This document shows, piece by piece, positions 3,778 through 62,604 of a DNA stretch of 64,000 nucleotides. The stretch comes from Vicinamibacterales bacterium (GTDB taxonomy: Bacteria; Acidobacteriota; Vicinamibacteria; Vicinamibacterales; 2-12-FULL-66-21). The position numbers and the translations under genes are program-made. Where the stretch lies: NCBI GenBank assembly GCA_036278735.1, contig DASUKM010000055.1:64683-128682 (forward strand), in the 5' to 3' direction. Position 1 is the first letter of the stretch, and every line of letters starts with the position of its first letter. The notes below the pieces were generated by a model, which worked only from the letters and a program-made list of their open reading frames with translations, ran no database searches and was not told the DNA's origin.

Positions 3778-5739
3778 ATGTTCCGTAAGTTGCTCGTACC
3801 GGTCTTCGCGTTCAGTGTCGTCGTCACGGTCTCGGCGATGCCGCAGCAGCCGCAGCAGCAGGCGCCGCGTCAGGTCACCGTGTGGGTGCCGCACGCCATC
3901 GCGCCCGAGAAGATCGACGCGGACATGTACAAGAAGATCCGCGCCGAGGGGATGGACCACTCGAAGATCATGTGGATCGAGCACTACCTCACCGACGTCT
4001 ACGGCCCGCGCCCGACCGGCTCGCCCAACCAGGCCGCCGCCGCGAACTGGGCGGTGAAGACGATGACGAGCTTTGGGTTGAAGAACGCCCATCTCGAGCC
4101 GTTTACGTGGCGCGGCATCGGCTGGCTGCCGGGGCTGGCGAGCGGCTACATCACCTCGCCCATGAAGGCGAACCTGAAATTCGAGGCGGTCCCCTGGTCG
4201 CCATCGACCAACGGCACGGTCAAGGGAGACGTGGTGTGCCTCGTTCCGCCGGAAACGCCGACCCAGGCGGAGTTGACCGCCTATCTCGTCAAGATGGCCC
4301 CGATGGTGAAGGGGGCGATCGTGATGGTCGGGGCGCCGCCGGCGGTGCCCGTCGAGTTCAACGAGCGGGCGAAGCGGATTCCCGACGATCAGGTGAAGGC
4401 GCGCTACGAGCCGGGCGCGTCGAACCGGCCCAGGTTCCTGCGCGCGCGAGGCGGCGGGCAGACGCCGGCGGCGGGCCATCTCTCGGCGCGGCAGGTCAAC
4501 GAGCAGATCGCGCAGATGCTGCGCGACAACCTGCCGGCGCTCCGGCTGCAGGCCCAGGGCCCCGGACGCATTCCCGGCGTCATCGTGGCGCAGAACGGCC
4601 CGGGACAGATCTACGACGACAAGACGCCCCAGTCGCCCGCCGTCATCCTGCGTACCGACGACTACGGCCGCATCTTCCGAATCATCGCCGACGGCACGCC
4701 GGTCTCGGTCGAGTTCAACGTCCAGAACCAGTACTTCCCCGACGGCAAGACGTCGTACGTGACGGTTGCCGAAATTCCCGGCACCGACAAGGCCGACGAG
4801 GTCGTGATGCTCGGTGGCCATCTCGATTCGTGGGCGAGCGCCACCGGCGCGACCGACAACGCGATCGGCAGCGCCGTGATGATGGAAGCCGCGCGAATCC
4901 TGGAGGCGGTCGGAGCGAAGCCGCGCCGGACGATCCGGGTCGCGCTGTGGAGCGGCGAGGAGCAGGGGCTGCTCGGCTCGCTCGACTACGTGAAGCGCCA
5001 CTTCGGCTCGGCCGAGAAGCCGCTCCCCGATTACGCGAAGCTCGACGCGTACTGGAACATCGACGACGGCACCGGGCGCGTGCGGGGCGCCACGGTGTTC
5101 GGTCCGCCCGAGGCGGCCGCGGTCGTCGCGCAGTACCTGGCGCCGTTCGAGGACTGGGGCGTCTTCGGCGCCGCGCCGTCGAGCGCGCGCGTCGAAGGCG
5201 GCAGCGACAACGGCGCGTTCGCCGTCGCGGGTCTGCCCGGCATCGGGGCGCAGCAGGATCCCATCGAATACAACAGCACGACCTGGCACACCGATCTCGA
5301 CACGTACGAGCGCATCGTTCCAGACGATGTGATGAAGAACGCGGTGATCACCGCGTCGGTCGTGCTGGGGCTCGCCGACCGCGACGCGATGCTGCCGCGG
5401 TTCTCCGGAGAGGACATGCCGGAAATCCCGCAGCCGCGCCGGTTCGGAAATCAGGCCGGCCCGACGTCGGAGAGCCGCGTCTTCGTCGTCGATCGCAACA
5501 AGCCGTTCACTGTCGCGCCGCCCGGGCTCCAGCCGCCGCCGAATCCGCGTGCGGAAACGAAGACCGCCGCGACCGTGGCGCTCGACGCCGCCCCGGCCCA
5601 CGGCAAGGTGATGGTCAAGGAAGACGGCAGCTTCGTCTACACGCCCGCGCGCAACTTCACGGGCACCGATACGTTCACCTACAAGGTGACGAACGGGACG
5701 GAGACGATTCCCGGGACGGCGACGGTAATCGTGAAATAG
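3778..5739 (+). CDS. Secreted M28 (carboxypeptidase Q-like) metallopeptidase with C-terminal Ig/cadherin-like repeat
   Basis: GGHLDSW, GATDNAIG, SGEEQGLLGS and WHT metal motifs; C-terminal HGKV..DGSFVYTP..FTGTDTFTY. AGGAG SD before ATG 3778; TATGAT at 3720-3725. Confidence 0.88.
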   Translation: MFRKLLVPVFAFSVVVTVSAMPQQPQQQAPRQVTVWVPHAIAPEKIDADMYKKIRAEGMDHSKIMWIEHYLTDVYGPRPTGSPNQAAAANWAVKTMTSFGLKNAHLEPFTWRGIGWLPGLASGYITSPMKANLKFEAVPWSPSTNGTVKGDVVCLVPPETPTQAELTAYLVKMAPMVKGAIVMVGAPPAVPVEFNERAKRIPDDQVKARYEPGASNRPRFLRARGGGQTPAAGHLSARQVNEQIAQMLRDNLPALRLQAQGPGRIPGVIVAQNGPGQIYDDKTPQSPAVILRTDDYGRIFRIIADGTPVSVEFNVQNQYFPDGKTSYVTVAEIPGTDKADEVVMLGGHLDSWASATGATDNAIGSAVMMEAARILEAVGAKPRRTIRVALWSGEEQGLLGSLDYVKRHFGSAEKPLPDYAKLDAYWNIDDGTGRVRGATVFGPPEAAAVVAQYLAPFEDWGVFGAAPSSARVEGGSDNGAFAVAGLPGIGAQQDPIEYNSTTWHTDLDTYERIVPDDVMKNAVITASVVLGLADRDAMLPRFSGEDMPEIPQPRRFGNQAGPTSESRVFVVDRNKPFTVAPPGLQPPPNPRAETKTAATVALDAAPAHGKVMVKEDGSFVYTPARNFTGTDTFTYKVTNGTETIPGTATVIVK

Positions 5740-5831
5740 GCTTTGGGCGTTGGGCTTTAGGCTTTGGGAAAGAGCGCACCAAGCCAACTCCCAAAGCCCC
5801 CTAGAGCCTAAAGCGGAAAGCCCAAAGCTTA
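5737..5831. repeat. Inverted pair of heptamer arrays (TGGGCTT/TAGGCTT family) between convergent genes
   Basis: TAGGCTT TGGGCGT TGGGCTT TAGGCTT TGGG after the + stop; the complementary CCCAAAG/CCTAAAG arm runs into the - strand stop. Confidence 0.85.
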
Positions 5832-8800
5832 CCGCCCGCCGCCCTTGGCGAGCGCGCGGTAGTACTGCTCCACCTGTGTGCGGTACTGTTCGGGCACTTC
5901 GTCCGAGCCGGAGAGGAACGTCTGATTCCCGCTCGCGTCCGCCTTGCGGCGCAGCTCGAACTCGAGGCGCTTCATCTGCTCGGTCAAGGACGCCTGCAGC
6001 TTCGTGAGCGCCTGCGGGTCGTGATACGCGTTGGGATCGTCGAGCCGGCGGAGCCCTTCCATGACGCCGTCGAGCGCGTGCGTGTCGAGCCGCTCGCCGC
6101 GCATCAGGCGCCGCAGGTTCTCGGCGTCGCTCTGGCGCTGCCGCGCTTCGCCGCGGAACTGCCGAACGTCGTCCGGGGAGAAGCGCCCCCCGGCGGCGCC
6201 GTTCGGCTGCATGACGCCCGCGTTGCCGGTTCCCTCCTGGCCGCGCTGCCCCCCCTCGCCGCGCTGTCCTCCCTGCCCTTGCTGCCCCTGCTGCCCCTGC
6301 TGTCCTTGTTGGGCCTGCTGTCCTTGCTGACCTGATTGTCCCTGCTGGCCGGATCGTCCCTGCTGGCCAGCCTGTCCCTGTTGTCCGCGTTGTCCCTGCT
6401 GCGCCTGCTGGCTCGCCTCCTTCATGCGCTGATCGAGCGACTCCATGCCGCGCGCCAGCTCCCGGGCCTTCTGGAGCGTCTGGGCCATCGCGTCCGGCTT
6501 CGAGTTGCCGAGCGCCGAGGCGGCCTCGCCGATGCGCTTCCGCAGCGCGTCGATGTTGGCGCCGATGTCGTTCTCGAGGCTGCGGGCGTATTCGGCATTG
6601 CTGCCACCCTGCAGGAAGCCCTTCGAATAGCGGATCTTGTCCTGAAGGCGGCTGTCGCGCATGCCATTGGCCGCTTCGGACAACCGGCGCGCCGCGTCTC
6701 GCTCGTTCTTCTGCAGCGATGCCGCCGCGCGATCGAGCTGCTGCTCGAGCTGTCCTGCCTGGGAATCGAGCGTGTCCTTGCGAGCGGCGAGCTCCTGGGC
6801 CTTGCGCTGGCCGTCGGGCGTCGAGGGATCGAGCTTCTGCGCGTCGCCGGCGATGCCGGCCTGCTCGCGGGCCATCTCGTCGGCCTGGCGCTGGGCGTCG
6901 GCGATGTCGCGCGCGCCGCGCGCCCCCTGCGCCTGCTGGAGCTGACGCCCCGCCTCCTGCAGCCGCTGCGCCGCGGCGGACGCCTGGGCGGCGGCGTTCG
7001 GATCGTTCGACGCGGCGGCCCGGCGCATCGCATCCGCGGCCTCGCGCAACTGGCGCGCCGACTCGGCCAGCTCGGGGCGGTTCTCGTCGCGCGACAGCCG
7101 ATCGAGCTGCCGCGCCGCCTCTTCGGCTTGCTGCGCCAGCGCGCGCTGGTCCGCACTGCCGCCGGAGGAGGCCTGCCCGGACCTCGCCTGCTGGCGCTGC
7201 CGCGCCGCTTCCTGCTCCTGCCGCCGCGCCAGCTCCTTCAGCTTCTCGGCGAGCTCGTCGATCTTCTGATCGCGCTGCTGCTGCGTGGCGCGATCCGCGG
7301 TCTCGTACTGGTTCGACATGCGATCCAGCTCGAGCTGGAACAGGTCCGCCAGATCGCTCGCCATCGACCCGGAATTGCTCCCCCCGCCGCCGCCGTTGCG
7401 GCTCGTGCTGACCTGCACCTGATACTTCTCTTCGGCCTGCTGCAGGTACTGGAGCGCTTTCTGCTCCGGCGACAGCGCCGCCGCCGTATCGCGCGCCTGC
7501 AGCCTGCCCTCGGCCGCCTTCATCTCCTTCACCGCCTTCGGCAGCAGATCCGCGATCTCCTTGAAGCTGCCGTCGGTCCCGCCGAGGCGCTGCGTCATCT
7601 TCATCGCGATCTCGTCGACCTGCTCGCGCAGCTTCGCCTGCGACAGCGCGATTACCGTCGTCGCTTCCCGCAGCTTGTCGGGCGCGGTGGTCGAGCGGTC
7701 GCGCTGGACGTTGAACGTCGCCGAGATGATCCGGCGCTCCTGCTCGGAGAGCTGCCCGACCTGCGCGCCGCCGCCCCCGCCGCCCCCCTGGGACTGGGCC
7801 TGGCGGAAGTCCTTGTCGAGCGGCCGCACGCGGACGAAGTACATGTCGCTCGTCGCGGCGCGCGGGCCGTTCACCGTGCCGTTGTCGGTCGCGCGCGCGT
7901 AGTACGAGACGAAGTCGCCAGGCTTGACGTCGAATTCCTCGAGGTAGAACGTGTGCCCCGCCGAGATCTCGGGCATCCGCTTCGTTCCCTTGAACAGGGC
8001 GATGGTCCGGGCGGCGCCGCCGTTGACCGAATAGACGAGATCCATGCGGCCGATCCCGTAATCGTCCTGCGCCTTCGCCTCGACGAACACTTCTTCGATG
8101 GGGGACGCCGAGGTGTCGCGTCCCGGCTTCGAGAACGTCACCGTCGGAGGCTGGTCGTCGAGCGCGTCGATCGTGTACTGCGGCGACCCGCTCACGTGCG
8201 GGCCGTGCGGCGCGTCGAACTCGATGCGGTAGAAGCCGTCGTGGTCGGCCGTGAAGCGGCCCGTCAACGACCCGTCGGCCTCGACGGTCAGCGGCGCGCG
8301 GGTCTTGTCGTCGATCACCACGTCGCCGCCGGAGGCGGCCATCGTCGGGACGGCGCGGACGCGGATCTCGGTGCCGCGCAGGACGGCGATGTCCCCCCCA
8401 TCCTCGACCCGCCGCGGCGCCAGACCGGTGTACGCGGGAAAGTGATACTCCAGCTCGAGCCGCTGCACGTACGGCATGTCGGCGACGTGCAGCGTGTAGA
8501 CGGGAGACCGCACGCCGGCCGCCTCGACGAAATAGTCGATCGGCGCGGCAATCTTGAAGAGCATGCCGTCGTAGCGATTGCCGTCGCCGCGCACGAGCGG
8601 CAGGCGATCGAAGGGGGCCCCGGGCGACTTCCGGACCATCAACGACGCGCCGTCGGCATCGAAACCCACGAGGGTCGCCGAGACGGTCTGGTCGGCGCCG
8701 CGCGGCACCGTCGCCTGCCCCGGCTTCACCTCGATGCGATACGGCACGGCCGCCTCGACGCTGCGCGACACGATCAGCAGCGCCGACAGGCCGCTGCGCA

Positions 8801-9335: not shown

Positions 9336-9345
9336 GGCTACCTCT

Positions 9346-9491
9346 ATTGGAAACCGGGGGGCTTCGCCCCGCCGGACCCCCCACCTCCACCCCAGCGCGC
9401 AGAGAACGCGCGCCGGGGACCCCGGTCGCCGTCGCTCGCGGGGCCCCATGACCCCCGCTCCGCTCCGGCGGGGCGCGCCCTTGGCGCCAAT
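9346..9491. repeat. 146-nt highly structured intergenic element (REP/MITE-like)
   Basis: Terminal ATTGG/CCAAT; perfect 12-bp inverted repeat 9365-9376 / 9464-9475; internal hairpins at 9357-9370, 9390-9418 and 9438-9458. Confidence 0.55.
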
Positions 9492-9496
9492 CCTAA

Positions 9497-11533: not shown

Positions 11534-11534
11534 T

Positions 11535-12440: not shown

Positions 12441-12465
12441 GAACCGGACTCCTCTCTGGCGCGGA

Positions 12466-13503: not shown

Positions 13504-13510
13504 GTGTTCC

Positions 13511-13564
13511 TCCCAAAGCCCAAAGCCCAAAGCCTAAAGCCCAACGCCTAACGCCTAACGCCTG
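13511..13564 (-). repeat. Heptamer tandem array (TGGGCTT/TAGGCGT), 7 units plus partial
   Basis: Fills the spacer from the upstream stop to the moxR Shine-Dalgarno; the last partial unit merges into GGGAGG. Confidence 0.9.
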
Positions 13565-13566
13565 CG

Positions 13567-14562
13567 TTACGATCCGCCGAGATCCCTGATCTTCTTACTC
13601 GTGACGGCGAGATCCGTCAGCAGCTTCTCCAGTTCGCTCGCGTAGCGCGCCTGATCCATGCTGCCCTTGAGCAGCTTCAGCGATTCGACCCTTCGCTCGA
13701 GGCCGTCGCGTTCGACGTAGAGCGCGCGCAGTTGCGGGCTGGCGTTCGCCGCCGGAGCGGCATGCGCCGGCTCGCCGAGCGACAGGATCGCCGCCACGCG
13801 GCCGTCCTTCGCCTGCGGACCAGGATCGGCGCTCCCCTCCCGATCGCCGTTGTCGTCGAGCAGCGGATGCTCGGTCTGCATCAGCCCCTCGCGCTGGTAC
13901 GCATTGGCGACCTCGCGCTTCGCGTACACGTACGCCTCGAGCACCGACACGCGCCCGCTGTGATCGGTGTCGGCCGCGTCGCTCTTGAAGGCATCGACGA
14001 AAAAGCCGCCGAACAGCGTCGCGAAGTGCTCGGCGCCGTTGCGGGTCGCCGTCACGATCGTCCGGCCAGGACCCGACAGGACTTCGACGAACGGCCCGCT
14101 GGCACTCGTCGTGTCGACGAACACGACACGCTTCGATGGCAGCTTGCCGAGCAGCGCCGCGAAGTCCTGCGGCGTCATGTCGGGCCCGCGGAGGTTGAAC
14201 TTCGCCACACTGCCGTCGAACGTGCCGAAGCCGAACAGGACGACCATGACGGTATCGTCCTCTCCCGCGGTCGCCAGGGCCGCAAACGCCTTCTCCACCT
14301 CCGCGCGAGTCGACCGGCCCGTGGCATGCGCATCCTGCGCCGGGTCGTCGGCCAGGTAGATCACGTCCGCCTTCGGGACGCCGAGCTGCTGCACCGCCAC
14401 GTCCGCCAGCGTGTCTCCCCATTTCGAAAACAGCGCGCCGTGTTCCGGATCGCCCGAGAGGCCCACCACGATCAACAGGTGTGGCGTCTGGGCAAGGGCC
14501 GGCCGCGCTGCCGCGAGGGCAGCCGTCAGCACGAGTCCGGTGACGCGAGCGCGATGACGCAT
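13567..14562 (-). CDS. Secreted caspase-hemoglobinase (peptidase C13/C14-like) fold protein, probably catalytically inactive
   Basis: Signal peptide ending ALA-Q; LLIVVGLSGD, VVLFGFGT, FVDTTSASG, DTDHSGRVSVLEAY, EHPLLDDNGD; C-terminal helical segment. Confidence 0.6.
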   Translation of the reverse strand: MRHRARVTGLVLTAALAAARPALAQTPHLLIVVGLSGDPEHGALFSKWGDTLADVAVQQLGVPKADVIYLADDPAQDAHATGRSTRAEVEKAFAALATAGEDDTVMVVLFGFGTFDGSVAKFNLRGPDMTPQDFAALLGKLPSKRVVFVDTTSASGPFVEVLSGPGRTIVTATRNGAEHFATLFGGFFVDAFKSDAADTDHSGRVSVLEAYVYAKREVANAYQREGLMQTEHPLLDDNGDREGSADPGPQAKDGRVAAILSLGEPAHAAPAANASPQLRALYVERDGLERRVESLKLLKGSMDQARYASELEKLLTDLAVTSKKIRDLGGS

Positions 14563-14570
14563 TAAACGCT

Positions 14571-17019: not shown

Positions 17020-18795
17020 ATGCACCTGACGTCCTTCGATTGGGTCATCGTCGCCGTCTCCATTTTCATCTCGTTCCTGCCCGCCATCCTGCTGGCGCGG
17101 CGGGCGGGGTCGAGCGCGGCCGAATTCTTCGCCTCGGGACGCGCGGCGCCGTGGTGGCTGATTGGCGTCTCGATGGTCGCAACGACTTTCAGCACGGATA
17201 CGCCGAACCTCGTCACGAATTTCGTGCGTGTCGACGGCGTGGCCGCGAACTGGGCCTGGTGGTCGTTCCTGCTGACGGGGATGATGACGGTCTTCTTCTA
17301 CGCCCGGCTGTGGCGCCGATCGGGGGTGCTCACCGATCTCGAGTTCTACGAGCTGCGCTACGCGGGCCGGCCGGCGGCGTGGGTGCGGGCGTTCAGGGCC
17401 GTGTACCTCGGGCTCTTCTTCAACATCGTCATCATGGCGTCGGTGAACCTCGCGGCCGTGAAGATCGCCAACGTCATCCTCGGCTGGCCCATGGCCGAGA
17501 CCCTCTGGATCTGCGCCGTGATCAACGTCGCGTTCGCGGCGACCTCCGGCCTCTGGGGCGTGCTCGTCACCGACTTCATCCAGTTCGGCATCGCGATGAC
17601 CGGATCGTTTGCCGCCGCCTATTTCGCGGTCAAGCAGCCCGCCGTCGGCGGACTGCACGGCCTGTTCACGCGTATCCCGACATCGACGCTGCGGCTGGTG
17701 CCCGACTTCAGCAACTGGAGCCTGACGCTGACCGTGCTGATCATCCCCCTCACGGTGCAGTGGTGGTCGGTGTGGTATCCCGGATCCGAGCCGGGCGGCG
17801 GCAGCTACATCGCGCAGCGGATGCTGGCGGCGCGCACGGAGCGCGATGCGGTGGGAGGCACGCTGTTCTTCAACGTCGCGCATTACGCGCTGCGGCCGTG
17901 GCCGTGGATCATCGTCGCCCTCGCCTCCATGCTCGTGTTTCCGCAGCTCTCCGACATCTCGCGGGCGTTCCCCTACGTCGACCCGCGGCTGATCGGACAC
18001 GACATGGCGTATCCGGCGATGCTGACATTCCTGCCCGTCGGCTGGATGGGCCTGATGGTCGCCGGGCTGCTCGCGGCCTACGTCTCGACGATCTCGACGC
18101 ACCTGAACTGGGGGACGTCGTACCTCGTGCACGACGGCTACCGGCGCTTCATCCATCAGGACGCGCCCGAACGGCACTACGTGATGGTCGGCCGGCTCGT
18201 GACGGCGGTCCTGATGGTGCTGGCCGCGCTGTTCACGTTCGTGCTGCAGACCGCAAGCCAGAGCTTCAGCCTGCTGCTCTCGGTCGGCGCGGGCACCGGG
18301 CTGTTGTACCTGCTGCGCTGGTTCTGGTGGCGGATCAACGCGTGGAGCGAGATCGCCGCGATGGTGTCCTCGTTCCTGATCGCGATGGTGCTGTTCGTCG
18401 CCCAGAATTACGGCTACAACCTGCCGGCCACGCTCACGCTGGTCGTCCCGGTGGCGGTCACCACGATCGTGTGGGTCGCGGTCACGCTGATGACGGCCCC
18501 CGCCGATCAGGAGACGCTCGTGCGGTTCTACCGGCTCGTGCGCCCCGCTGGCCGCGGGTGGGCGCCGATTCGCGCGATCGCGCAGGTCGGCCCGTCCCCC
18601 GACAGCATGGCGCAGGCGTTGATCGCCTGGGTGTGCGGCGTCGCGTTCGTCTACGCCGCGCTCTTCGGCTCCGGCAGCCTGCTGTACGGGTACAAGACAC
18701 AGGCGATCGTGTGGATCGTCGTGTTCGTCGTCAGCGGGGCCGGGCTGGTGAAGCTGCTGCCCGCGATGTGGAGGCAGCCCATTGCCGAATCTTGA
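17020..18795 (+). CDS. Sodium:solute symporter (SSS) family transporter
   Basis: EFFASGR..PWW..G.SMVATTFSTDTP, GLWGVLVTDFIQF, YIAQRMLAA, STISTHLNWG; many TM helices. Confidence 0.92.
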   Translation: MHLTSFDWVIVAVSIFISFLPAILLARRAGSSAAEFFASGRAAPWWLIGVSMVATTFSTDTPNLVTNFVRVDGVAANWAWWSFLLTGMMTVFFYARLWRRSGVLTDLEFYELRYAGRPAAWVRAFRAVYLGLFFNIVIMASVNLAAVKIANVILGWPMAETLWICAVINVAFAATSGLWGVLVTDFIQFGIAMTGSFAAAYFAVKQPAVGGLHGLFTRIPTSTLRLVPDFSNWSLTLTVLIIPLTVQWWSVWYPGSEPGGGSYIAQRMLAARTERDAVGGTLFFNVAHYALRPWPWIIVALASMLVFPQLSDISRAFPYVDPRLIGHDMAYPAMLTFLPVGWMGLMVAGLLAAYVSTISTHLNWGTSYLVHDGYRRFIHQDAPERHYVMVGRLVTAVLMVLAALFTFVLQTASQSFSLLLSVGAGTGLLYLLRWFWWRINAWSEIAAMVSSFLIAMVLFVAQNYGYNLPATLTLVVPVAVTTIVWVAVTLMTAPADQETLVRFYRLVRPAGRGWAPIRAIAQVGPSPDSMAQALIAWVCGVAFVYAALFGSGSLLYGYKTQAIVWIVVFVVSGAGLVKLLPAMWRQPIAES

Positions 18796-18919
18796 TTGCC
18801 GGCTGCCGATTGCCAGTGTCGATTGGCGATCGCCGATTGACGGATTGAAGATTGGCGATTGATCGGCGATTGGCGATTGGCGATAGATTGACGATTGGCG
18901 ATTGAAGATTGGGGATTGG
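18793..18919 (+). repeat. Degenerate heptamer array (GATTGNC family) between convergent genes
   Basis: GATTGCC/GATTGGC/GATTGAC/GATTGAA units starting within the TGA stop and filling the spacer. Confidence 0.85.
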
Positions 18920-21549: not shown

Positions 21550-21670
21550 ATTGGCGATGGCCGAGGGCCGATTGCCGATCGAAATCCCATTGCAGATTGG
21601 CGAGTGGGATTGCAGATTGACGAGTGGGATTGCAGATTGGTGAGTGGGATTGCAGATTGGCCGATTGGGC
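21550..21670. repeat. GATTG-family array containing a 20-nt higher-order repeat (about 3.6 copies)
   Basis: ATTGCAGATTGGCGAGTGGG period from 21589 to 21661, flanked by degenerate GATTG units. Confidence 0.85.
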
Positions 21671-21689
21671 TGCAGCTGAGGCGTACCCC

Positions 21690-37393: not shown

Positions 37394-38848
37394 ATGACAC
37401 GTCTCGCGCTGCTCAGTTGCCTCGTGATCGCGGTCGCCGCCGCCGGGCCGTCATCTTTTTCTGCGGCAGCCGGCGCCGCGACAACGACAGCGCGCGCAGC
37501 GCCCGCCGGACACGACTGGACGCAGTTTGGCGGCGATGCCGAACGCTCCAGCGCATCGGACGTACCCACCGGCATCGACGCCCGCAACGTGGCGTCACTC
37601 CAGAAGCAAACCGTCGAGATCGACGGCACGGTCGACGCCTCGGCGATCTACCTGCACGGCGTGCAGGTGCGCGGCGGCACGCACGACACCCTGTTCGTGA
37701 CGACGACCTATGGAAAAACCCTCGCGATCGATGCGGCCGATGGCAAGGTGCTCTGGGAGTACACGCCGCCGCAGTACTCGTCGTGGGCCGGGTCGCGCCA
37801 GATCACCAACGCCACGCCGATCGCCGATCCCGGCCGGCAGTTCGTCTACGCCGCCTCTCCTGACGGCCACGTGCAGAAGCTCGCCGTCTCGGACGGCCAC
37901 GCGCTGTGGAGCACGGCGATCACGAAGCTGCCGCAGCGCGAGAAGATCGCGTCCCCCCTCAACGAATTCAAGGGACACATCGTCGCGGTAACCGGCGGGT
38001 ACATCGGCGACCAGCCGCCCTACCAGGGACACGTCGCCATCCTCGACGCGAACAGCGGCCGGATCCTCCACGTCTGGAATTCGCTCTGCAGCGATCGCGC
38101 CGAGCTGATCGATCCCAAATCGTGTCCGGAAAGCGATTCCGCCATCTGGGGACGCGCCGGTGCCGTGATCGATTCGCAGACCGGCCACGTCTTCGTGGCG
38201 ACGGGCAACGCGCGATGGGATGGCCGGACGTACTGGGGCGATGCCGTGGTGGAGCTGGATCAGGATGCCACCCGGATGCTCGCCAACTACACGCCGCAGA
38301 ACACGAGCGAGCTGAACGAGCGCGATGCGGATCTGGGGTCGACGTCCCCCGTGCTGCTCGACCCCCGGACGATCGCCCAGGGGGGCAAGGACGGGCAGAT
38401 TCGCGTGCTCAGCCTGGAGAAGATCGCGGGTACGGCGCCGCATCAGGGCGGCGAACAGCAGACAGTGTCGACCCCTTCCGGCACCGACCTGTTCACCGCG
38501 CCGGCGGTCTGGCGCACGAAGGGCACCACGTGGATGTTCGCCGCCGACAACGGCGGCACTGCCGCCTGGACGTTTGCCGGCGGCCGTCTCTCGCCGAAAT
38601 GGCACAACGACCACTCCGGCACGAGTCCCCTGGTCGCCGGCGGCCTGCTGTACGTCTACGATCAGCGGGGCGGCGGCTTGCGCGTCTACGAGCCCGCGAC
38701 CGGACGCCAGCTCGCCGCGCTCGCCTGCGGCGAGGGCCATTGGAACAGCCCGATGGTCGCCGACGGCCGCATCATCCTGCCCGAAGGCAACGCAAACTCC
38801 CACGACATGAGCGGAGTGCTCGATATCTGGCGAGTCAGTCGCCAGTAA
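37394..38848 (+). CDS. Secreted PQQ-type (BamB-like) beta-propeller protein
   Basis: Signal peptide, DWTQFGGD, A.DA.DGKVLW repeats, VATGN, DADLGS; extended -10 TGcTAGGAT at 37369-37377 and GGAGG SD. Confidence 0.8.
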   Translation: MTRLALLSCLVIAVAAAGPSSFSAAAGAATTTARAAPAGHDWTQFGGDAERSSASDVPTGIDARNVASLQKQTVEIDGTVDASAIYLHGVQVRGGTHDTLFVTTTYGKTLAIDAADGKVLWEYTPPQYSSWAGSRQITNATPIADPGRQFVYAASPDGHVQKLAVSDGHALWSTAITKLPQREKIASPLNEFKGHIVAVTGGYIGDQPPYQGHVAILDANSGRILHVWNSLCSDRAELIDPKSCPESDSAIWGRAGAVIDSQTGHVFVATGNARWDGRTYWGDAVVELDQDATRMLANYTPQNTSELNERDADLGSTSPVLLDPRTIAQGGKDGQIRVLSLEKIAGTAPHQGGEQQTVSTPSGTDLFTAPAVWRTKGTTWMFAADNGGTAAWTFAGGRLSPKWHNDHSGTSPLVAGGLLYVYDQRGGGLRVYEPATGRQLAALACGEGHWNSPMVADGRIILPEGNANSHDMSGVLDIWRVSRQ

Positions 38849-38852
38849 CCAG

Positions 38853-38898
38853 TTCTCGGGTTCTCGGGTTCTCGGGTTCTCGGGTTCTCGGGTTCTCG
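38853..38898 (+). repeat. Octamer tandem repeat (TTCTCGGG) x5 plus partial
   Basis: Perfect copies directly after a short CCAGT arm that contains the upstream stop codon. Confidence 0.95.
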
Positions 38899-38991
38899 CC
38901 ACTCTTGTAATCGACGTACGAGAATGGTCAGCGGCCAGACTCCGAGCGCTGTTGCCGCCGCTCGGCCGCCGCGGCCATTCGGTTCGTCGCT

Positions 38992-39194
38992 ACCGGCGAC
39001 TGGTAACTGGCGACTGGTAACTGGTAACTGGTAACTGGCGACTGGTAACTGGCCACTGGTAACTGGCGACTGGTAACTGGCCACTGGTAACTGGCCACTG
39101 GTAACTGGCCACTGGTAACTGGCCACTGGTAACTGGCCACTGGTAACTGGCCACTGGTAACTGGCCACTGGTAACTGGCCGCTGGTAACTGGCT
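38992..39194 (+). repeat. Heptamer array ACTGG(TA/CG/CC), about 29 units with a 14-nt higher-order period
   Basis: Unit-by-unit reading: ACTGGTA alternates mainly with ACTGGCG on the left and ACTGGCC on the right. Confidence 0.95.
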
Positions 39195-39218
39195 CCCGGC
39201 TACTGTTGACTGCTCCTC

Positions 39219-39234
39219 CGGCACGTGATTTGCG
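39219..39234 (+). promoter_or_regulatory. Candidate sigma54 promoter
   Basis: CGGCACGTGATTTGCG matches GGCACG-N4-TTGC, about 45 nt before ATG 39280. Confidence 0.7.
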
Positions 39235-39279: not shown

Positions 39280-40713
39280 ATGCAGCAGGACGTCCACACC
39301 GCAGCCTGGCTCGACTTCGATCGAACCATCACCGTCGTCGTGTTCCTCGTCGTGCTGGCGTCGGCCTGCCTCATGCCGATCCAGAGCGACACGTGGTGGC
39401 ATCTGCGCGCCGGGCACGACATGTGGCGCAGCCACGCGATCCTGCTGCGCGACACCTTTTCTTATACGGCGCGCGGCGACTACTGGCCGAACCACGAGTG
39501 GCTGAGCGAAATCCTGTTCTTCGCGACATATCGCGCGGCCGGCCTGCCGGGCCTGACCGCCCTCGCCGCGGTCGCGGTCACGGCGGCGATCGCGCTGTCG
39601 TGGGCCCTCATGCGCGGACCCGTGCTCGCGCGCGTTCTGCTGCTGGCCATCGCGGTGCCGTCCATCGTGCCGGTCTGGACGGTCAGGCCTCACGTGTTCA
39701 CGCTCGTGCTCTTCCTGGCGGCCTTCCACCTGATCCTGCGCGCACGGTTCTGGCCCGTCCCGATCCTGTTCGCCCTCTGGGCCAATCTGCACGGTGGGGT
39801 CGCGATCGGATTCGTCGTGCTCGGCGGCGCCGCGGCGGCGGATGTGTGGGTGAACGGCTGGTCGCGGCTCGGCCGATGGATGCTGCTGATCCCGGCATGC
39901 CTGGCCGCGACGCTCGTGACGCCGCTCGGTATCCACCTGTGGACGGCGATCGAGGCGTCGGTCCGCAAGTCGGCCGCGATCGGCGTATCGGAATATGCGG
40001 CGGCCTCCTTCGGCTGGTCCGATGGGGCGTTCTGGGTCCTGGCAAGCGCGCTGGTGCTGCTCGCCGTCGCTCGACGGCAATCGATCCGAACAGAGGCGGC
40101 GCTCGTCTTCGTGTCGTTCGCCTTGCTGCCCTTCGCCGTCCGGTACGCCCGCAATATCCCCCTGTTCCTGCTGGTCGCCGTTCCCACCGTCAGCCGTCTC
40201 TTGCCGCCGCGGCTGCTGCAGCGCCGGGGCAGCCGGCGCGATCGTCCCACGGTCAACGCGTCGCTGCTGGCAACAGTCGCGACCGCCTGCGTCGCCCTCG
40301 TCGCCGTGTCCTGGAGCGCGCCTGTCGCGCGCCTGCAGTGGCGTCCCGTGTCGGACACGATCGCCGGCGCCATCGACACCTGCCCGGGCCCGCTGTACAA
40401 CCGGTTCGACGACGGCGGCTACGTGATCTGGTTTGCGCCGGCCGTCCCGGTGTTCGTGGACAATCGGCAGGATCCGTATCCGCTCGACTTCCTGCAGGCG
40501 CACCTGCACGCCGAACGGAGCGGCCGCTACGAACAGGTTTTTCGGCAGTACGGGATCCGCTGTGCCTTTCTGCCGCCCACGTCGCCAACCGCCGAACGCC
40601 TGGTGGCGGCGGGGTGGCGTGTGCGCGCGTCGGATGCGCGCTGGGAGGTCCTCGAACGATCGACGGACGACATCGACGCGACCGCCGCCGCATCCGAGGC
40701 CAAGGACAGATAA
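39280..40713 (+). CDS. Polytopic membrane protein, probable GT-C fold glycosyltransferase
   Basis: DTWWHLRAG, D.FSYT, NHEWL, RPH, LWANLHGG, GGYVIW, VFVDNR..PYP; many TM helices. Confidence 0.65.
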   Translation: MQQDVHTAAWLDFDRTITVVVFLVVLASACLMPIQSDTWWHLRAGHDMWRSHAILLRDTFSYTARGDYWPNHEWLSEILFFATYRAAGLPGLTALAAVAVTAAIALSWALMRGPVLARVLLLAIAVPSIVPVWTVRPHVFTLVLFLAAFHLILRARFWPVPILFALWANLHGGVAIGFVVLGGAAAADVWVNGWSRLGRWMLLIPACLAATLVTPLGIHLWTAIEASVRKSAAIGVSEYAAASFGWSDGAFWVLASALVLLAVARRQSIRTEAALVFVSFALLPFAVRYARNIPLFLLVAVPTVSRLLPPRLLQRRGSRRDRPTVNASLLATVATACVALVAVSWSAPVARLQWRPVSDTIAGAIDTCPGPLYNRFDDGGYVIWFAPAVPVFVDNRQDPYPLDFLQAHLHAERSGRYEQVFRQYGIRCAFLPPTSPTAERLVAAGWRVRASDARWEVLERSTDDIDATAAASEAKDR

Positions 40714-43359: not shown

Positions 43360-43408
43360 GGTTCAGGGTTCCGGATGCCGGGTTCCAGGTCGGCTCCGGG
43401 CAGTCGCC
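43360..43408. repeat. Short degenerate heptamer-like array (GGTTCCG/GGTTCAG)
   Basis: GGTTCAG GGTTCCG GATGCCG GGTTCCA with 7-nt spacing. Confidence 0.5.
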
Positions 43409-48122: not shown

Positions 48123-48211
48123 GCAGCTGTCAGCCAACCAGCCGTCAGCTGTCAGCCATCGCGCCACCGGCTTCGCGCCTGCTGCAGCTGAGCGCTGACA
48201 GTTGAGGGCTG
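48123..48211. repeat. Inverted CAGC-family heptamer arms forming a hairpin in a 5' UTR
   Basis: CAGCCGTCAGCTGTCAGC (48139-48156) pairs with GCTGACAGTTGAGGGCTG (48194-48211); TATAAT at 48110-48115. Confidence 0.7.
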
Positions 48212-48228
48212 CCCCCAGGGAGGTAGCC

Positions 48229-52450: not shown

Positions 52451-52486
52451 CAGGAAGCTGTCGAACGCTTCAGGAGTCGAGGAGCA

Positions 52487-54067
52487 ATGTCAAAGGGCAA
52501 GACCACGTTGTTTTATGCCGTCCTGCTGTCGATCGCGTCGGTGGCGGTCGGGATGGTGATCGCCTCCCGGCTGGATCTGTCGCCGACCGCCTCGGCGGCG
52601 CCGGCCGTCTCGGTGCCGTCCACCAACAGCGCGCCGATCACCGGTCCGATCGATGCGACCACGTTCCGGAACATTGCGAAAGCGGACATGCCGGCGGTCG
52701 TCAACATCCAGACCGAGTCGCACGCGCGCAGACGCGACATGAGCGAGTTCTTCGGCGGCGGCGGCGACGACCTGCTGCGCCGCTTCTTCGGCCAGCAGGG
52801 CCAGGGCGGCGAAGGCGAGAACCCGACGCCGCGCAACCGCGGCCGCGGCCAGCAGGATCAGGGGCCCGCGATGGTCGGGGCCGGCAGCGGCTTCGTCATC
52901 GACAAGACCGGCTTCATCCTGACCAACAACCACGTGGTCGAAGGGGCCGAGAAGATTCAGGTCTCCTTCTCCGACGGTGCGCCGGGCGTCTCGTACCCGG
53001 CCAAGGTCATCGGCCGCGATCTGCTGACGGACTGCGCCCTCATCCAGTTGACGGAGATGCCGGCGACGCCGCTTCACGAAGTGAAGTTCGGCGATTCGAC
53101 GCAGATGGAGCCGGGCGACTGGGTGATGGCGATCGGCAATCCATTCAATATCGGCCAGACCGTCACGGTGGGGGTCATCAGCGCGCTCGGCCGTCCGTTC
53201 GGCGGCGTGCAGGGGCGCACGCAGGACATGCTGCAGACCGACGCCGCGATCAATCCGGGCAATTCGGGCGGCCCGCTGCTGAATCTTCGGGGCGAGGTGG
53301 TCGGCATGAACACCGCCATCTATACCGACCAGCGTTCGGCGAACATCGGCATCGGCTTCGCGACCCCGATCAACACGATTCGCGACCTGCTCCCGCAGCT
53401 CCGGACGGGGAAGGTCATCCGTGGCGTCATCGGCGTCCAGGTGCAGAGCCGGCCGATCGCGGCGAACGAGGCCAAGGCGTTCGGGCTGCCGAACAACAAC
53501 GGCGCCGTCATCAGCACCGTCAATCCCAACGGCCCGGCCGACAAGGCCGGTCTCGAACCCGGCGACGTCGTCGTCGAGTACAACGGCCAGCCGGTGAAGG
53601 ACAGCAACGCGCTCGTCTCGATGGTGGTCGGCACCAAGCCGGGCACCACCGTCCCGGTCACCGTGTATCGCGACGGCCAGCGCAAGGCGCTGAACGTGAC
53701 GATCGACGAGCTGGACCTCGAGGCGGAACAGAATCAGACCGCCCGCGGCGGCGGCGCCCCGAACCAGAACGAGCCGACGACGACCGGCTTCGGGATGACG
53801 CTCGATCCGATTACGCCCGACGTGTCGCGGCGGCTCGACCTGCCGCGCGATACGGGGGGGGCGGTCGTGAGCGACGTCGACCGTGACGGCGCGGCGGTAG
53901 CGGCCGGCGTGGTCCCGGGCGACGTGATCCTGGAGGTCAATCGCGTCAAGGTGAACAGCGTCAGCCAGGTCACGCGCGAGCTGGACAAGGTGCAGACAGG
54001 CCAGCCGGCGTTCCTGCTGATCTGGCGCGACGGCCAGCAGGTCTTCGTCACGATGACCAAGAAATAG
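52487..54067 (+). CDS. DegP/HtrA (Do family) serine protease with two PDZ domains
   Basis: GSGFVI, LTNNHVV, AIGNPF, QTDAAINPGNSGGPL, two PDZ domains; GAGGAG SD. Confidence 0.95.
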   Translation: MSKGKTTLFYAVLLSIASVAVGMVIASRLDLSPTASAAPAVSVPSTNSAPITGPIDATTFRNIAKADMPAVVNIQTESHARRRDMSEFFGGGGDDLLRRFFGQQGQGGEGENPTPRNRGRGQQDQGPAMVGAGSGFVIDKTGFILTNNHVVEGAEKIQVSFSDGAPGVSYPAKVIGRDLLTDCALIQLTEMPATPLHEVKFGDSTQMEPGDWVMAIGNPFNIGQTVTVGVISALGRPFGGVQGRTQDMLQTDAAINPGNSGGPLLNLRGEVVGMNTAIYTDQRSANIGIGFATPINTIRDLLPQLRTGKVIRGVIGVQVQSRPIAANEAKAFGLPNNNGAVISTVNPNGPADKAGLEPGDVVVEYNGQPVKDSNALVSMVVGTKPGTTVPVTVYRDGQRKALNVTIDELDLEAEQNQTARGGGAPNQNEPTTTGFGMTLDPITPDVSRRLDLPRDTGGAVVSDVDRDGAAVAAGVVPGDVILEVNRVKVNSVSQVTRELDKVQTGQPAFLLIWRDGQQVFVTMTKK

Positions 54068-54301
54068 ATGACGGATGACGGATGGCGGATGGCGGATGGC
54101 GGATGATGGATGATGGATGACGGATGACGGATGACGGATGACGGATGACGGATGACGGATGACGGATGACGGATGACGGATGACGGATGATGGATGGCGG
54201 ATGATGGATGGCGGATGATGGATGGCGGATGATGGATGGCGGATGACACGTGAGGGGCGAATGGATGATCCGTCATCCGACCTCCGTCATCCGACATCCG
54301 T
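54067..54301. repeat. Heptamer array GATGACG/GATGGCG/GATGATG (about 26 units) plus a short inverted TCCGTCA arm
   Basis: Starts at the stop TAG and runs to 54247; the complementary arm at about 54269-54301 lies in the first codons of the next ORF. Confidence 0.95.
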
Positions 54302-55154
54302 CCCTCGCCGCCTTCCCCCATACGCCTGGATCGGCCTCGCGACGATGGCGGTGTCGGAGATCGGCATGCTGCGGCACGTCGAGCCGTTCTGGTCCTGGCA
54401 CACGCCGATCGCCTGGACCGGCTACATCCTCCTCGTCGACGGTCTGGTGTGGCGGCGGCGCGGAGATTCGTGGCTGCGGAACGCGCGCGCCGAGTTCTGC
54501 TTTCTCGCGGCGGCCAGCATCGCCCTCTGGGTTGTGTTCGAGCTGTACAACGCCTTCGCCCTGCACAACTGGTATTACGTCAACCTGCCCGCGAACGCGC
54601 TGCTGCGGTATTTCGGGTACGCGTGGGCGTTTGCGACCATCTCCCCCGCCATTTTCGAAACCGGCGAGCTGATTGCTGCCTGGCGCGATCGCCGGGCGCC
54701 GCGCTCCCGACGCGACCCGCCGCCCCTCGTGCCGCTCGGCGCGGCGGGGTGGACGAGCGTGCTCGTCGGTCTTGGCCTCGTGCTGCTGCCGATCCTCCAC
54801 CCCTCGCCGTGGCTCGCCGCTCCCGTGTGGCTGGGGTTCATCTTTCTGTTCGATCCGCTGAACGCGGCGGCCGGCGCCGAGTCGATTCGGAGTGACCTGC
54901 GGGCCGGGCAGTACCGGCGGCTGATCGCGCTGCTGCTGAGCGGACTGGCCTGCGGTTTCATCTGGGAATTCTGGAACGACTGGTCGCGCGCGAAGTGGAT
55001 CTATACCGTCCCGGTCCCGCCGCACGTGAAGCTCTTCGAGATGCCGCTGGCCGGTTTCGGCGGCTTTCCGCCGTTTGCCGTCGAGTGCTTCACGATGTAC
55101 GTCTTCGTCCGGCACTGGATCTGGCGTGGAGTGGAGCGGCCGATCTCGCTATAA
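54261..55154 (+). CDS. Conserved-looking Trp-rich membrane protein of unknown function
   Basis: WTGYILLVD, W.VFELYN....NWYY, FATI.PAIFET, CGFIWEFWN, KLFEMPL.G.GF.PFA.E; start uncertain. Confidence 0.75.
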   Translation: MDDPSSDLRHPTSVPRRLPPYAWIGLATMAVSEIGMLRHVEPFWSWHTPIAWTGYILLVDGLVWRRRGDSWLRNARAEFCFLAAASIALWVVFELYNAFALHNWYYVNLPANALLRYFGYAWAFATISPAIFETGELIAAWRDRRAPRSRRDPPPLVPLGAAGWTSVLVGLGLVLLPILHPSPWLAAPVWLGFIFLFDPLNAAAGAESIRSDLRAGQYRRLIALLLSGLACGFIWEFWNDWSRAKWIYTVPVPPHVKLFEMPLAGFGGFPPFAVECFTMYVFVRHWIWRGVERPISL

Positions 55155-55200
55155 TCGCCGCCGGGAGCACGCGGACCCGGAACGGAAGGAGCCGTTGCCC

Positions 55201-55770: not shown

Positions 55771-55845
55771 TCGCCAGTTACCAGTCGCCAGTTACCAGTC
55801 GCCAGTTACCAGTTACCAGTTACCAGTTACCAGTCGCCAGTTTCC
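55768..55845 (+). repeat. Heptamer array CAGTTAC/CAGTCGC, 11 units
   Basis: Runs from the stop TAG to 1 nt before the next ATG. Confidence 0.95.
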
Positions 55846-56838
55846 ATGTCCGACGTCCTGCCCTTCAGGCGCGCGCTCGTCCTGACGGCTGGCTTCGGGA
55901 CGCGATTGCGGCCGCTGACGTGCGTGCGGGCGAAGGCGGCCGTGCCTGTCGACGGCGAGCCGCTCGTGCGCCGCGTCATCCGGTGGCTCGTGGCCGCCGG
56001 CGTCGACGATCTCGTCCTGAACCTGCACCACAAGCCGGAGACCATTGCCGCCGTCGTCGGCGATGGCGCGGATCTGGGCGCGCGCGTGCGCTATTCCTGG
56101 GAACAGCCGGTCCTCGGCTCGGCCGGGGGCCCGAGGCGCGCGCTGCCGCTGCTGACCGGCGACGATGGGGCGCGGCCGTTTCTGATCGTCAACGGGGATA
56201 CGCTCACCGACGTGGACCTGCGGGCGCTCGGCGAGGCGCACGCGCAATCGGGGGCGCTCGTCACGATGGCGCTGATTCCCAATCCCCGGCCGGACAAGTA
56301 CGGCGGCGTGGCGCTGGACGGCGACGGGCGCGTGACTGGTTTCACGCGGCGCGGCTCGCCCGAGCCGTCGCGGCACTTCATCGGCGTGCAGGCGGTGCAG
56401 GCGGAGGCGTTCGCGGATCTGCCCGACGGCGTCGTGATGGAATCGGTCCTCGGCGTCTATCCGCGGCTGATGCTTGAGCAGCCCGGGAGCATCCGTGGGT
56501 TCCTTACCCGCGCCGCATTCCAGGACATCGGCACGCCGGCCGATCTCTGGCGCACCTCGATGGATCTGGCCGCGGAAGCCGGCCGCCCCGGGCGGCCCGC
56601 GGCGGGGGCGCGCGTGGCGATCGCGCCGGACGCGCGTGTGGAGCGCAGCGTGTTATGGGATGATGTGAGCGTCGCGGCGGGGGCGCGCGTCGTCGAGGCG
56701 ATCGTCGCCGACGGCGTCTCGATTCCTCCGGGCGCCGTGTTCGAACGCTGCGCGATCGTGCGCGCGGGCGCCGGACCGGCTGGGCCCGGCGAAACCATCC
56801 GCGACGGGCTGCGGGTCGCGCCGCTGGATCGCTCCTGA
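55846..56838 (+). CDS. Sugar-1-phosphate nucleotidyltransferase (MurU-like) with C-terminal beta-helix-like segment
   Basis: LTAGFGTRLRPLT..RAK, NLHH, E.PVLGSAGG, VNGD, DIGTP; adjacent to an AmgK-like kinase. Confidence 0.8.
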   Translation: MSDVLPFRRALVLTAGFGTRLRPLTCVRAKAAVPVDGEPLVRRVIRWLVAAGVDDLVLNLHHKPETIAAVVGDGADLGARVRYSWEQPVLGSAGGPRRALPLLTGDDGARPFLIVNGDTLTDVDLRALGEAHAQSGALVTMALIPNPRPDKYGGVALDGDGRVTGFTRRGSPEPSRHFIGVQAVQAEAFADLPDGVVMESVLGVYPRLMLEQPGSIRGFLTRAAFQDIGTPADLWRTSMDLAAEAGRPGRPAAGARVAIAPDARVERSVLWDDVSVAAGARVVEAIVADGVSIPPGAVFERCAIVRAGAGPAGPGETIRDGLRVAPLDRS

Positions 56839-56852
56839 CCGGGTCCTCACCC

Positions 56853-57884: not shown

Positions 57885-58078
57885 TCGCCAGCCGGCAGTC
57901 GCCAGTTGCCGGTAACCAGTCGACAGTAACCAGTCGACAGTAACCAGTTGCCAGTAACCAGTTGCCAGTAACCAGTTCCCAGTAGTCAGCGCCCGTCCGC
58001 CAGCCCCCGCACTCCGCCCCCCACGCCCCGCACTCCGCCGCCGCACCCGCCATCCCCCCTCCGTCATCCGCCATCCAG
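57882..58078. repeat. Composite array: CCAGT-family heptamers followed by C-rich CCGCAC/TCCGCCA units
   Basis: CCAGTAA/CCAGTTG/CCAGTCG from the stop to about 57988, then CCGCACT, TCCGTCA and TCCGCCA units up to TACAAT at 58087-58092. Confidence 0.85.
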
Positions 58079-58134
58079 CTGTGTAGTACAATCGTTTGTT
58101 TCAGCCGCTCGCCGGGGCGGGCGCTGTGACGGCC

Positions 58135-58968: not shown

Positions 58969-58983
58969 TCGCGACACACGCTC

Positions 58984-60276: not shown

Positions 60277-60586
60277 CGGATGGCGGATGACGGAAGGCGG
60301 ATGGCGGATGACGGAAGGCGGAGGGCGGAAGGCGGAAGGCGGAAGGCGGAGGGCGGAAGGCGGAGGGCGGAAGGCGGAGGGCGGAGGGCGGAAGACGGAT
60401 GGCGGATGGCGGATGGCGGATGGCGGATGGCGGATGGCGGATGGCGGATGGCGGAGCCAATCGCCATTCATCAATCGTCAATCGCGTGCAATCGACAATC
60501 ATCATTCCGATGGCCAATCGAAAATCCGTCAATCGCGAATCATCAATGATCAATCCCAATCGTCAATCGCCACTCGACAATCGGAA
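60274..60586. repeat. Composite array: 26 units of NG(G/A)CGGA-type heptamer followed by degenerate CAATCG units
   Basis: TGACGGA begins with the asnS stop; units run to 60455; CAATC units from 60457 to the rimO ATG. Confidence 0.92.
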
Positions 60587-61939: not shown

Positions 61940-61945
61940 TATAGT
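61937..61945 (+). promoter_or_regulatory. Extended -10 promoter for rimP-nusA-infB
   Basis: TGaTATAGT overlapping the rimO stop. Confidence 0.6.
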
Positions 61946-61972
61946 GATCGGTGGCTGTGACGAGGCTTTTCC

Positions 61973-62001
61973 GAGTGGGCCGGTGCCCACTTTTTGTTTT
62001 T
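61973..62001 (+). terminator. rimP leader attenuator-type intrinsic terminator
   Basis: AGTGGGC-CGGT-GCCCACT followed by TTTTGTTTTT; GGGC..GCCC core typical of rimP-nusA-infB leaders. Confidence 0.85.
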
Positions 62002-62009
62002 CAGGGGCA

Positions 62010-62525
62010 ATCAGTACGGCAGGATCCGAACAGCTGACCCGGCTGCGCGCCGCCGCCGAGCAGGTGGCCCGCAGTCATGGACTCGACATCTTCGACGTGC
62101 AGTTGCGGCGCGAGCCGATCGGCATGGTGCTGCGCGTCGTCATCGACAGGCCCGCGACGGATCGCCCAGAAGCCCCGAGTGAAGAAGAACGCATCGGCGT
62201 CGACGATTGCCAGCGCGTCAGCCACGATTTGAGCGCGCTGCTCGACGTCGAAGAGGAATTCGGCCGGCCGGAGCTCGCCGAGGAGTACACGCTGGAAGTG
62301 TCCTCGCCGGGCCTCGACCGCCCCTTGCGCGGCGAAGCGGATTACCGCCGCTTCGCCGGGCGGCTGGCGAAGCTCGTCACCGTCGAGCCGATCGAGCGGC
62401 AGACGGCGTTCGCCGGACGCATTCGCGGCGTCGAGGGGGGGGCGATCCTGCTCGACGAGGGACGCCGGACGCACCGGGTGCCGCTCGCGCTCGTCAAGCG
62501 CGCGAATCTGGACGTGGAGTTCTGA
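62010..62525 (+). CDS. rimP: Ribosome maturation factor RimP (start codon uncertain)
   Basis: LRVVID, IGVDDCQRVS..LS..LD, YTLEVSSPGLDRPL, YRRFAG; first gene before nusA. Confidence 0.92.
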   Translation: MSTAGSEQLTRLRAAAEQVARSHGLDIFDVQLRREPIGMVLRVVIDRPATDRPEAPSEEERIGVDDCQRVSHDLSALLDVEEEFGRPELAEEYTLEVSSPGLDRPLRGEADYRRFAGRLAKLVTVEPIERQTAFAGRIRGVEGGAILLDEGRRTHRVPLALVKRANLDVEF

Positions 62526-62536
62526 CGCAGGAAGTT

Positions 62537-62604
62537 TCCAGATTCCAGTTGCCAGTTGGAACCTGGAACCGAACTGGAAACTGGAAGCTGGCGACTGGTT
62601 ACTG
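62537..62604. repeat. Inverted CCAGT / ACTGG heptamer arms between rimP and nusA
   Basis: TTCCAGA TTCCAGT TGCCAGT then AACTGGA AACTGGA AGCTGGC GACTGGT TACTGA. Confidence 0.8.

Follow-up and report, generated by a model that had tools for sequence, protein, structure and literature searches.

Heptamer arrays in the window

The DNA analysed here, a stretch of 64,000 nt (the window; G000:C55:64683-128682) from the assembly of a Vicinamibacterales bacterium (G000), carries in about a dozen of its intergenic spacers tandem arrays, here called arms, mostly of 7-nt units, and at its left edge the start of a small PF05635 four-helix-bundle gene. The assembly spans 3.78 Mb in 57 contigs (84.6% complete, ~69% G+C), and family matches such as acidobact_VWFA suggest an acidobacterium; since its genes (n=3073, 89% coding) come from our own codon model, spacer bounds at start codons are approximate. 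The 5' end of the PF05635 gene occupies positions 1..58 on the minus strand, with its start at 58 and the remainder just outside the window at G000:C55:64411-64722. Only its downstream arm, three AAAGCCC units ~310-330 nt before the window, is intact, the upstream arm being a remnant of one or two units at ~63-82.

The initial annotation listed a dozen spacers with period-7 arrays, and every listed site holds an array. A gene-less inverted TTTRGGC pair lies between convergent genes at 5736..5830 (array 5739-5828), both arms beginning, in register, at a TAG stop, with a predicted hairpin of -44 kcal/mol (z -4.15). A solo TTTRGGC arm (13510..13563, minus strand) stands after the stop of the gene at 13567-14469 and before a MoxR gene, upstream of which relatives have other units or no array. 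Two solo GATTG arms are on the plus strand, one (18793..18919) filling a convergent spacer, the other (21550..21675) at the left edge of a divergent spacer, with a 20-nt higher-order period at 21589-21661. The nested module at 38836..39212 consists of a CCAGT left arm (38836-38858) that overlaps a stop codon, an inner 8-mer arm of GTTCTCGG (38852-38898) and an ACTGG right arm of 30 units (38995-39212); the description of 38836-39194 as a heptamer array thus stands for the CCAGT and ACTGG arms and not for the inner one. A near-perfect sigma-54-type motif is found at 39219-39233, directly after the long ACTGG arm and ahead of the gene at 39280. Two further arrays fell below our periodicity score and were picked up by family patterns. 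One (43360..43387, plus strand), which had been called too degenerate to score, is scorable as a short GGTTC-family arm of three units, GGTTC also flanking a truncated PF05635 gene on contig C14; the other (48123..48214) is a degenerate inverted pair of the CAGCY subfamily (hairpin z -4.00).

The remaining arrays lie between degP and nusA. A gene-less GGATG pair follows degP (54067..54302), with a left arm of 25 units, a centre of ~20 nt and a right arm of four units; the GGATG core family also flanks the PF05635 gene on contig C19. A solo CCAGT arm (55771..55846, plus strand) occupies the entire spacer before a nucleotidyltransferase gene. Mixed modules are present after amgK (57885..58076; a CCAGT left arm with CCGCAC and CCATCC right arms) and between asnS and a radical-SAM/TRAM gene (60277..60583; a GGADG left arm of 25 units and a CAATC right arm), and a gene-less CCAGT pair separates rimP and nusA (62533..62604; hairpin z -3.82). 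Contigs probably from the source sequencing run enter each degP-to-asnS array from both flanks with 0 differences and break inside it or barely overlap; unit numbers therefore rest on the assembly, of which these contigs are not independent. The 9/18/27/36-nt repeats at 6232-6401 are coding, forming a protein repeat in a 1168-aa DUF4175-like gene, and lie outside the array system.

Abundance and unit families

The arrays are real and non-random. Across G000, 356 of 1886 spacers (each at least 25 nt) scored at period 7, against 4.7 in base-shuffled spacers; in the same scan periods 5, 6, 8 and 9 were found in 11, 25, 46 and 45 spacers, the excess of period 7 that had been proposed as a check. 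Tandem Repeats Finder (score at least 50, at least 3 copies) returned 339 rows genome-wide at period 7, 35 at 8, 32 at 9, four at 6 and one at 5. Within the window, 10 of 35 spacers passed the periodicity score at period 7, one at period 8 and none at 4-6 or 9-12. Most of the period-7 arrays in G000 (492/540) are intergenic.

Detection by unit-family patterns gave 765 arms, or 657 (30.5 kb in total) after removal of the GYGCGG pattern, mostly a rotation of GGADG, and of overlaps; the inward/outward count, the median stop distance, core fixation and the TTTRGGC stop counts given below predate the GYGCGG removal. The ~10 unit families include 8-, 9- and 10-mers: CAG(T/C) has 182 arms, GGADG 132, TTTRGGC 97, the CACGG 9-mer 83, GGTTC 50, GATTG 46, the CAGGAG 8-mer 26, the GGTTCTC 8-mer 24 and others 17. 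As described from the window, each unit combines a fixed core (93-100% fixed) with two to three variable positions; arms range from 3 to 30 units, and higher-order 14- and 20-nt periods occur. The 7-nt period seen as common to all arrays is dominant genome-wide but not universal, the 8-, 9- and 10-mer families following the cargo family described next.

Cargo genes and their arms

Profile matches identify six small cargo genes in G000, five of PF05635 (23S_rRNA_IVP; an open reading frame (ORF) of the PF05635/TIGR02436 type) and one of GxxExxY, a PD-(D/E)XK Pfam family; the GxxExxY protein shows a D...E-x-K stretch. Each has its own dispersed arm family: among the PF05635 genes, CCAGT arms on C50, GGAGGAC on C19, GGTTCTCG on C30, GGTTCAG on C14, where the front half of the gene is missing, and AAAGCCC for the gene at the window edge on C55; and CAGGAGAT arms for the GxxExxY gene on C6. 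Thus, six of the ~10 unit families flank a PF05635 (five) or GxxExxY (one) gene in G000, and GATTG and CACGG do so in relatives. The cargo proteins are 30-49% identical where alignable. No further cargo relics were found in G000 by tblastn with the six proteins, and other genes lying between same-family arms, considered as possible cargo, proved to be ordinary genes bordered by two separate spacers. At G000:C29:66355-67152, GGTTCTC arms ~670 nt apart surround sequence without a called gene. By sequence match, two solved relatives of the PF05635 proteins (2gsc, i.e. XCC0516, and 2rld) have five chains per entry, and a reference title in PMC10053308 speaks of five four-helix bundles.

The same organisation is found in related genomes, all from outside the genus of G000; the loci examined come from 94 of the 134 PF05635 rows and, for GxxExxY, from 30 of 43 (two of which are one locus), mainly those with the highest scores. 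Both arms were detected at 66 of the 89 PF05635 loci with full flanks, and at 62 of the 89 they match in inverted orientation, against a mean of 3.0 (maximum 8) when pairings were shuffled and two matches in direct orientation. For GxxExxY, the arms match in inverted orientation at 12 of 27 loci with full flanks (0.85 under shuffled pairing). GATTG arms border the genes of a PF05635 clade (G009, G011 and G012), and CACGG/CACAG 9-10-mers flank GxxExxY genes in G002, G003, G004, G006 and G009. The period depends on the cargo family, being 7 at 57 of 87 PF05635 loci and 8-10 at all 25 GxxExxY loci scored. Arm similarity increases with protein similarity (rho 0.27 over 1752 cross-genome pairs), arms being common to 14 of the 16 top pairs, and arm cores cluster by clade in a quick protein tree of 122 columns with many open forks. 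Arm length is most often five units in filled cassettes (25/75, with 14/75 at four and 39/75 at four or five) and four in gene-less arrays. GxxExxY is missing from G019, G022, G025 and G026 despite PF05635, and G025 and G026 still carry arrays.

A cassette is a left arm, a small gene and a right arm, located at a junction of ordinary genes in any orientation: the neighbours are protein-coding wherever identifiable, and the four orientations of cassette gene to neighbours are about equally common (17/16/15/14, n=62).

Sigma-54 promoters have a GG-N10-GC motif at -24/-12. Motifs fitting this consensus occur upstream of 50 of 92 PF05635 and 10 of 29 GxxExxY genes, against 281 of 3048 ordinary genes, and RpoN is present in G000. 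At PF05635 loci the motif falls inside the left arm, often directly before the start. In 24 of 43 motif-codon pairs its GC is 12-14 nt ahead of the start codon, a spacing that would give leaderless transcripts.

Polarity and geometry of the arms

The arm-bearing spacers of G000 (379) comprise 133 with left-type arms only, 134 with right-type only, 102 left-then-right, five right-then-left and five more complex; a left-type arm thus lies left of a right-type arm in 102 of 112 two-sided spacers. The inward/outward count gave 72 inward against seven outward. Both sides belong to the same family in 59 of the 112, against ~30% if independent, and unrelated families are paired in 47 of the 102 left-right spacers. 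By placement, 395 of 618 arms are outer, 112 inner and 111 ambiguous.

The sense-strand readings reported after stops (TGGGCTT three, CCAGT four, GGATG two, GATTG one) hold with our gene calls. The rule drawn from them, that orientation follows transcription, does not survive: co-directional spacers have 74 sense-left and 77 sense-right solo arms, the sense and antisense strands of 36 arm pairs fold better equally often (18:18), and cassette genes take all four orientations. Counted over all arms, GATTG (24:9) and CACGG (27:7) tend toward sense-left, the solos (6:3 each) being too few to judge. As an inverted pair reads left arm, right arm on either strand, the after-stop/before-start rule is geometry; polarity is that of inverted pairs, which corrects the transcription-based reading.

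In paired CCAGT arms the variable positions are non-complementary, the centre base matching in 3/19, which places the constraint on the core. The idea that one arm of a gene-less pair is a perfect mirror copy of its partner was likewise rejected, pair similarity being no higher than under random within-family pairing (centre base p 0.07). In paired CCAGT arms of G000 (C5:58692, C10:7516, C14:50512, C25:56006), both arms often show an identical centre base when read on one strand; folded as a hairpin, each unit then contains a single T-T or A-A mismatch.

Orthologous sites

Synteny of the degP-to-nusA block is mostly kept across 24 relatives, whose orthologous spacers are either empty or occupied by arrays with other units. 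The 55771 spacer has a heptamer array in 0 of 22 other genomes by eye. The orthologue of spacer 57885-58134 in G004 contains a complete GxxExxY cassette. At the asnS junction CAATC arms are present in G007, G009, G005 and G024, stop and start overlap with zero spacer in G003, G006, G012 and G026, and metagenome contigs show at least five unrelated units.

A site between an ABC-permease gene and an EF-G-like gene, compared in 13 genomes, gives a series of decay and inversion. The cassette is intact and forward in G016 and in G024 (with a different downstream gene), frameshifted in G017, broken or internally deleted in G009, G007 and G002 (by tblastn) and in G011 and G003 (by eye), and reduced to arms in G001; G012 and G006 have arms of other families, G005 is clean, and in G000 the cassette is intact but inverted (L001, G000:C50:43806-44497). 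Compared with G016, G017 and others, the L001 cassette lies inverted at its site, and one of its arms now adjoins the gene start. Comparison of orthologous spacers, proposed earlier as a check for empty sites and for cargo between arms, thus yielded both, as in clean G005 and the G004 GxxExxY cassette.

Sites are also reused. The same arms accompany the sister genes L001 and L035 at separate locations, and a single site can be occupied by distinct cargo clades or families. One site next to a release-factor-like gene holds two unrelated PF05635 clades (L191 and L249), oppositely oriented. At the leuC/pcrA site a related gene is kept in six genera with differing units, the two arms matching where both are detected. 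Among 14 sites filled in a relative and unfilled in G000, eight are clean and six have arms, compared with 12.6% of all junctions (p 0.005); a gene intervenes in one of the six. Decay in place, inversion, site reuse and a cargo-dependent period are accordingly observed features of the system.

There is also a gene-less module of 70-90 nt, in which CCAGCT arms enclose a conserved AAGGAAG-N5-CTTCCTT hairpin. It has 15 copies in G000 (C22:79661, C22:147758, C50:49238, C50:50183, C50:172136, C55:56926 and nine more), several in ribosomal-protein operons. G004 and G009 have it too, two of the sites being orthologous and a third empty in G000. A pattern scan of species genomes for the core-bearing module gave 14 scattered matches in unrelated taxa. 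G007, G010, G013 and G023 share, at the same junctions, a different intergenic repeat, a hairpin module of the GGGGGTGGGGCCCC type (L099, L073, L306, L318-L320).

Discussion

The arrays are inward-facing inverted arms of the families that bracket the PF05635 and GxxExxY genes of G000, and we consider it probable that the ~650 other arms are gene-less derivatives of such cassettes. Of the origins offered in the initial annotation, a cassette of inverted heptamer arms around small four-helix-bundle or nuclease genes is the one borne out, by the six cargo genes of G000, the matched loci of the relatives and the 13-genome series. Cassettes or gene-less hairpin modules would land repeatedly at tolerant junctions, in many cases on top of or within arms already there, from which mixed left/right pairs may result; the cargo gene would then be lost through internal deletion while the arms persist, each lengthening or shortening independently by slippage. 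The fixed 4-5-nt core and the period may be maintained by the cargo protein, a predicted pentameric ring like its solved relatives, binding about five units of its own family, with the period thereby following the protein family and the core following the clade. We propose such upkeep because the variable positions are unpaired, filled arms peak at five units and the solved relatives have five chains. Host recombination or repair, with the hairpin as substrate, is our guess for how the module might move.

Several observations weigh against the derivation of the arrays from such cassettes. Six of the 89 PF05635 loci have no detected arm and 17 have one only, and for the ~650 arms of G000 there is a single gene relic between arms, that on C14. 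Orthologous genes at the leuC/pcrA site carry different units or none detected, which is unexpected under strict recognition, and at none of the six arm-bearing sites of G000 does the unit correspond to that of the relative's cassette, so these arms are not simple remnants of those cassettes. Relatives share labels by kinship, and agreement of clade and core is also expected from joint inheritance. G029, with six PF05635 matches, has 0 arrays in 60 kb and G024, with 17 matches, two in 60 kb; the PF05635-negative genomes considered below are all from families other than that of G000, and the samples are small.

Neutral slippage, generally biased to period 7 and linked to no gene family, would explain arms of 3-30 units and the higher-order 14- and 20-nt periods, which are as slippage gives. 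It is, however, contradicted by the polarity (five right-left against 102 left-right spacers) and by the tight link to two cargo families, and further by the use of a few fixed cores hundreds of times each and by the near absence of arrays from PF05635-negative relatives of similar GC content (one period-7/8 array in 319 kb sampled from five genomes, against 40 in 400 kb from seven positive ones); we regard it as highly improbable. Selection by the host for RNA structures, i.e. RNase III- or terminator-like hairpins at gene ends with which the small genes hitch-hike, as do ORFs in 23S rRNA intervening sequences (IVSs), also seems unlikely to us, if less so. Four folded window pairs are indeed stable (z -3.8 to -5.2), arms are enriched at convergent junctions (94/474, against 58/476 divergent and 220/2066 co-directional), the core-bearing module is retained at orthologous sites in G004 and G009, and a Coxiella IVS is excised by RNase III, according to PMC4990558. 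Yet 267 of the 379 arm-bearing spacers have one arm type only, the unrelated pairings noted above are common, sense and antisense fold alike, the variable positions are unpaired, and a hairpin does not require a period of 7.

A third possibility makes the cargo protein a writer or homogeniser: working with a host polymerase or reverse transcriptase, it would append new units to RNA or DNA ends near stops or rewrite existing ones, such that arms arise in place and no module moves. It would account for the TTTRGGC arms that begin at a TAG stop (45/55, TAG being 28% of stops genome-wide; one register in 36/55), for the median of 9 nt between stop codon and arm, for orthologous cassettes that switch unit in both arms without moving, and for the description of PF05635 as resembling Avd, the partner of the reverse transcriptase of diversity-generating retroelements, in PMC10053308. 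However, PF00078 has 0 matches in the 84.6% complete G000, which also leaves addition by a reverse transcriptase, as a form of the templated repeat addition suggested initially, unsupported; the single-register fit is non-significant in the other well-sampled families, solo arms have no sense bias, and the 15 copies of one module, with their conserved non-repeat core, suggest that modules are copied whole. On balance this account appears quite improbable, more so than that of host-selected structures.

Returning to the arrays as cassette arms, a wider and decidedly tentative extension, which we rate as somewhat unlikely, is that PF05635 and GxxExxY proteins drive transposase-free selfish cassettes, each oligomeric protein reading its own lattice (five heptamers for the pentamer, 8-10-mers for the nuclease-like GxxExxY), being expressed from a sigma-54 leaderless transcript, and spreading gene-less hairpins as RAYTs spread REPINs; the heptamer excess of many bacteria would then stem from such cassettes. 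Should the derivation of the arrays from cassettes hold, it would connect two uncharacterised protein families with a class of bacterial repeats that has long lacked an explanation, and would bear on the excess of period 7 among bacterial tandem repeats and on the role of the very common 'four helix bundle / 23S rRNA intervening sequence protein'. With six repeat families matched to six cargo genes in G000, and two more in relatives, cognate versus non-cognate binding and mobilisation are directly testable; specific predictions follow from the dependence of period on cargo, from the match of core with clade, from the sigma-54-like motif and from the one-site decay series.

Comparison with known systems

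The STRR sequences of cyanobacteria are heptamer repeats, and arrays of this kind, together with their placement, are already in print. Published units include GGGAATC in Xanthomonas and GGGGA(C/T)T in Nostoc, which lie in one orientation after stops and in the other before starts and are generally not linked to mobile elements (PMC4692102, portions consulted), and TAACTGA in Beggiatoaceae, for which the portions of PMC4679880 consulted report that no mechanism was found. The arrays of G000 resemble these, as far as those portions describe them, in being intergenic 7-nt tandem arrays, most commonly of about four units, with after-stop/before-start orientation; they differ in comprising ~10 families, 8-10-mers included, tied to PF05635 and GxxExxY, and in that most units lack G-tracts for a quadruplex. 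GGGAATC, GGGGAYT and TAACTGA are absent from the common consensus units of G000, although TAACTGG is one base off TAACTGA. Our searches, whose coverage excluded most subscription papers and supplements, found no literature link of such arrays to PF05635 or GxxExxY.

The 23S rRNA IVS with its S23p ORF, as presented in PMC4990558, likewise has a small gene in a stem and decaying ORFs, and PF05635 is by name the same family; the cassettes, however, lie between protein-coding genes, their arms are tandem arrays, and the window has no Rfam match. A relationship to Avd of diversity-generating retroelements is indicated by the description of PF05635 already mentioned (PMC10053308) and by the sequence match to the five-chain four-helix bundles. 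Unlike such a retroelement, G000 has no PF00078 reverse transcriptase, and no template/variable repeat pair was seen, none having been searched for. The TRAP ring binds spaced triplet repeats. The logic proposed here, an oligomeric ring with one fixed core per subunit and free spacer bases, would be analogous, the proteins being unrelated.

A further parallel is with REPIN-RAYT systems, in which a small number of divergent, single-copy genes each have a family of flanking inverted repeats of their own, gene-less intergenic repeats being about a hundred times as numerous (PMC3337134). G000 similarly has inverted pairs with a spacer, and each family is tied to one single-copy gene; in contrast, its unit is a tandem heptamer array rather than a REP palindrome, its cargo genes have no known transposase activity, and RAYT/Y1 HUH tyrosine transposase (PF01797) gave 0 matches in the 84.6% complete assembly. 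The system of G000 is thus organised like REPIN-RAYT without being one.

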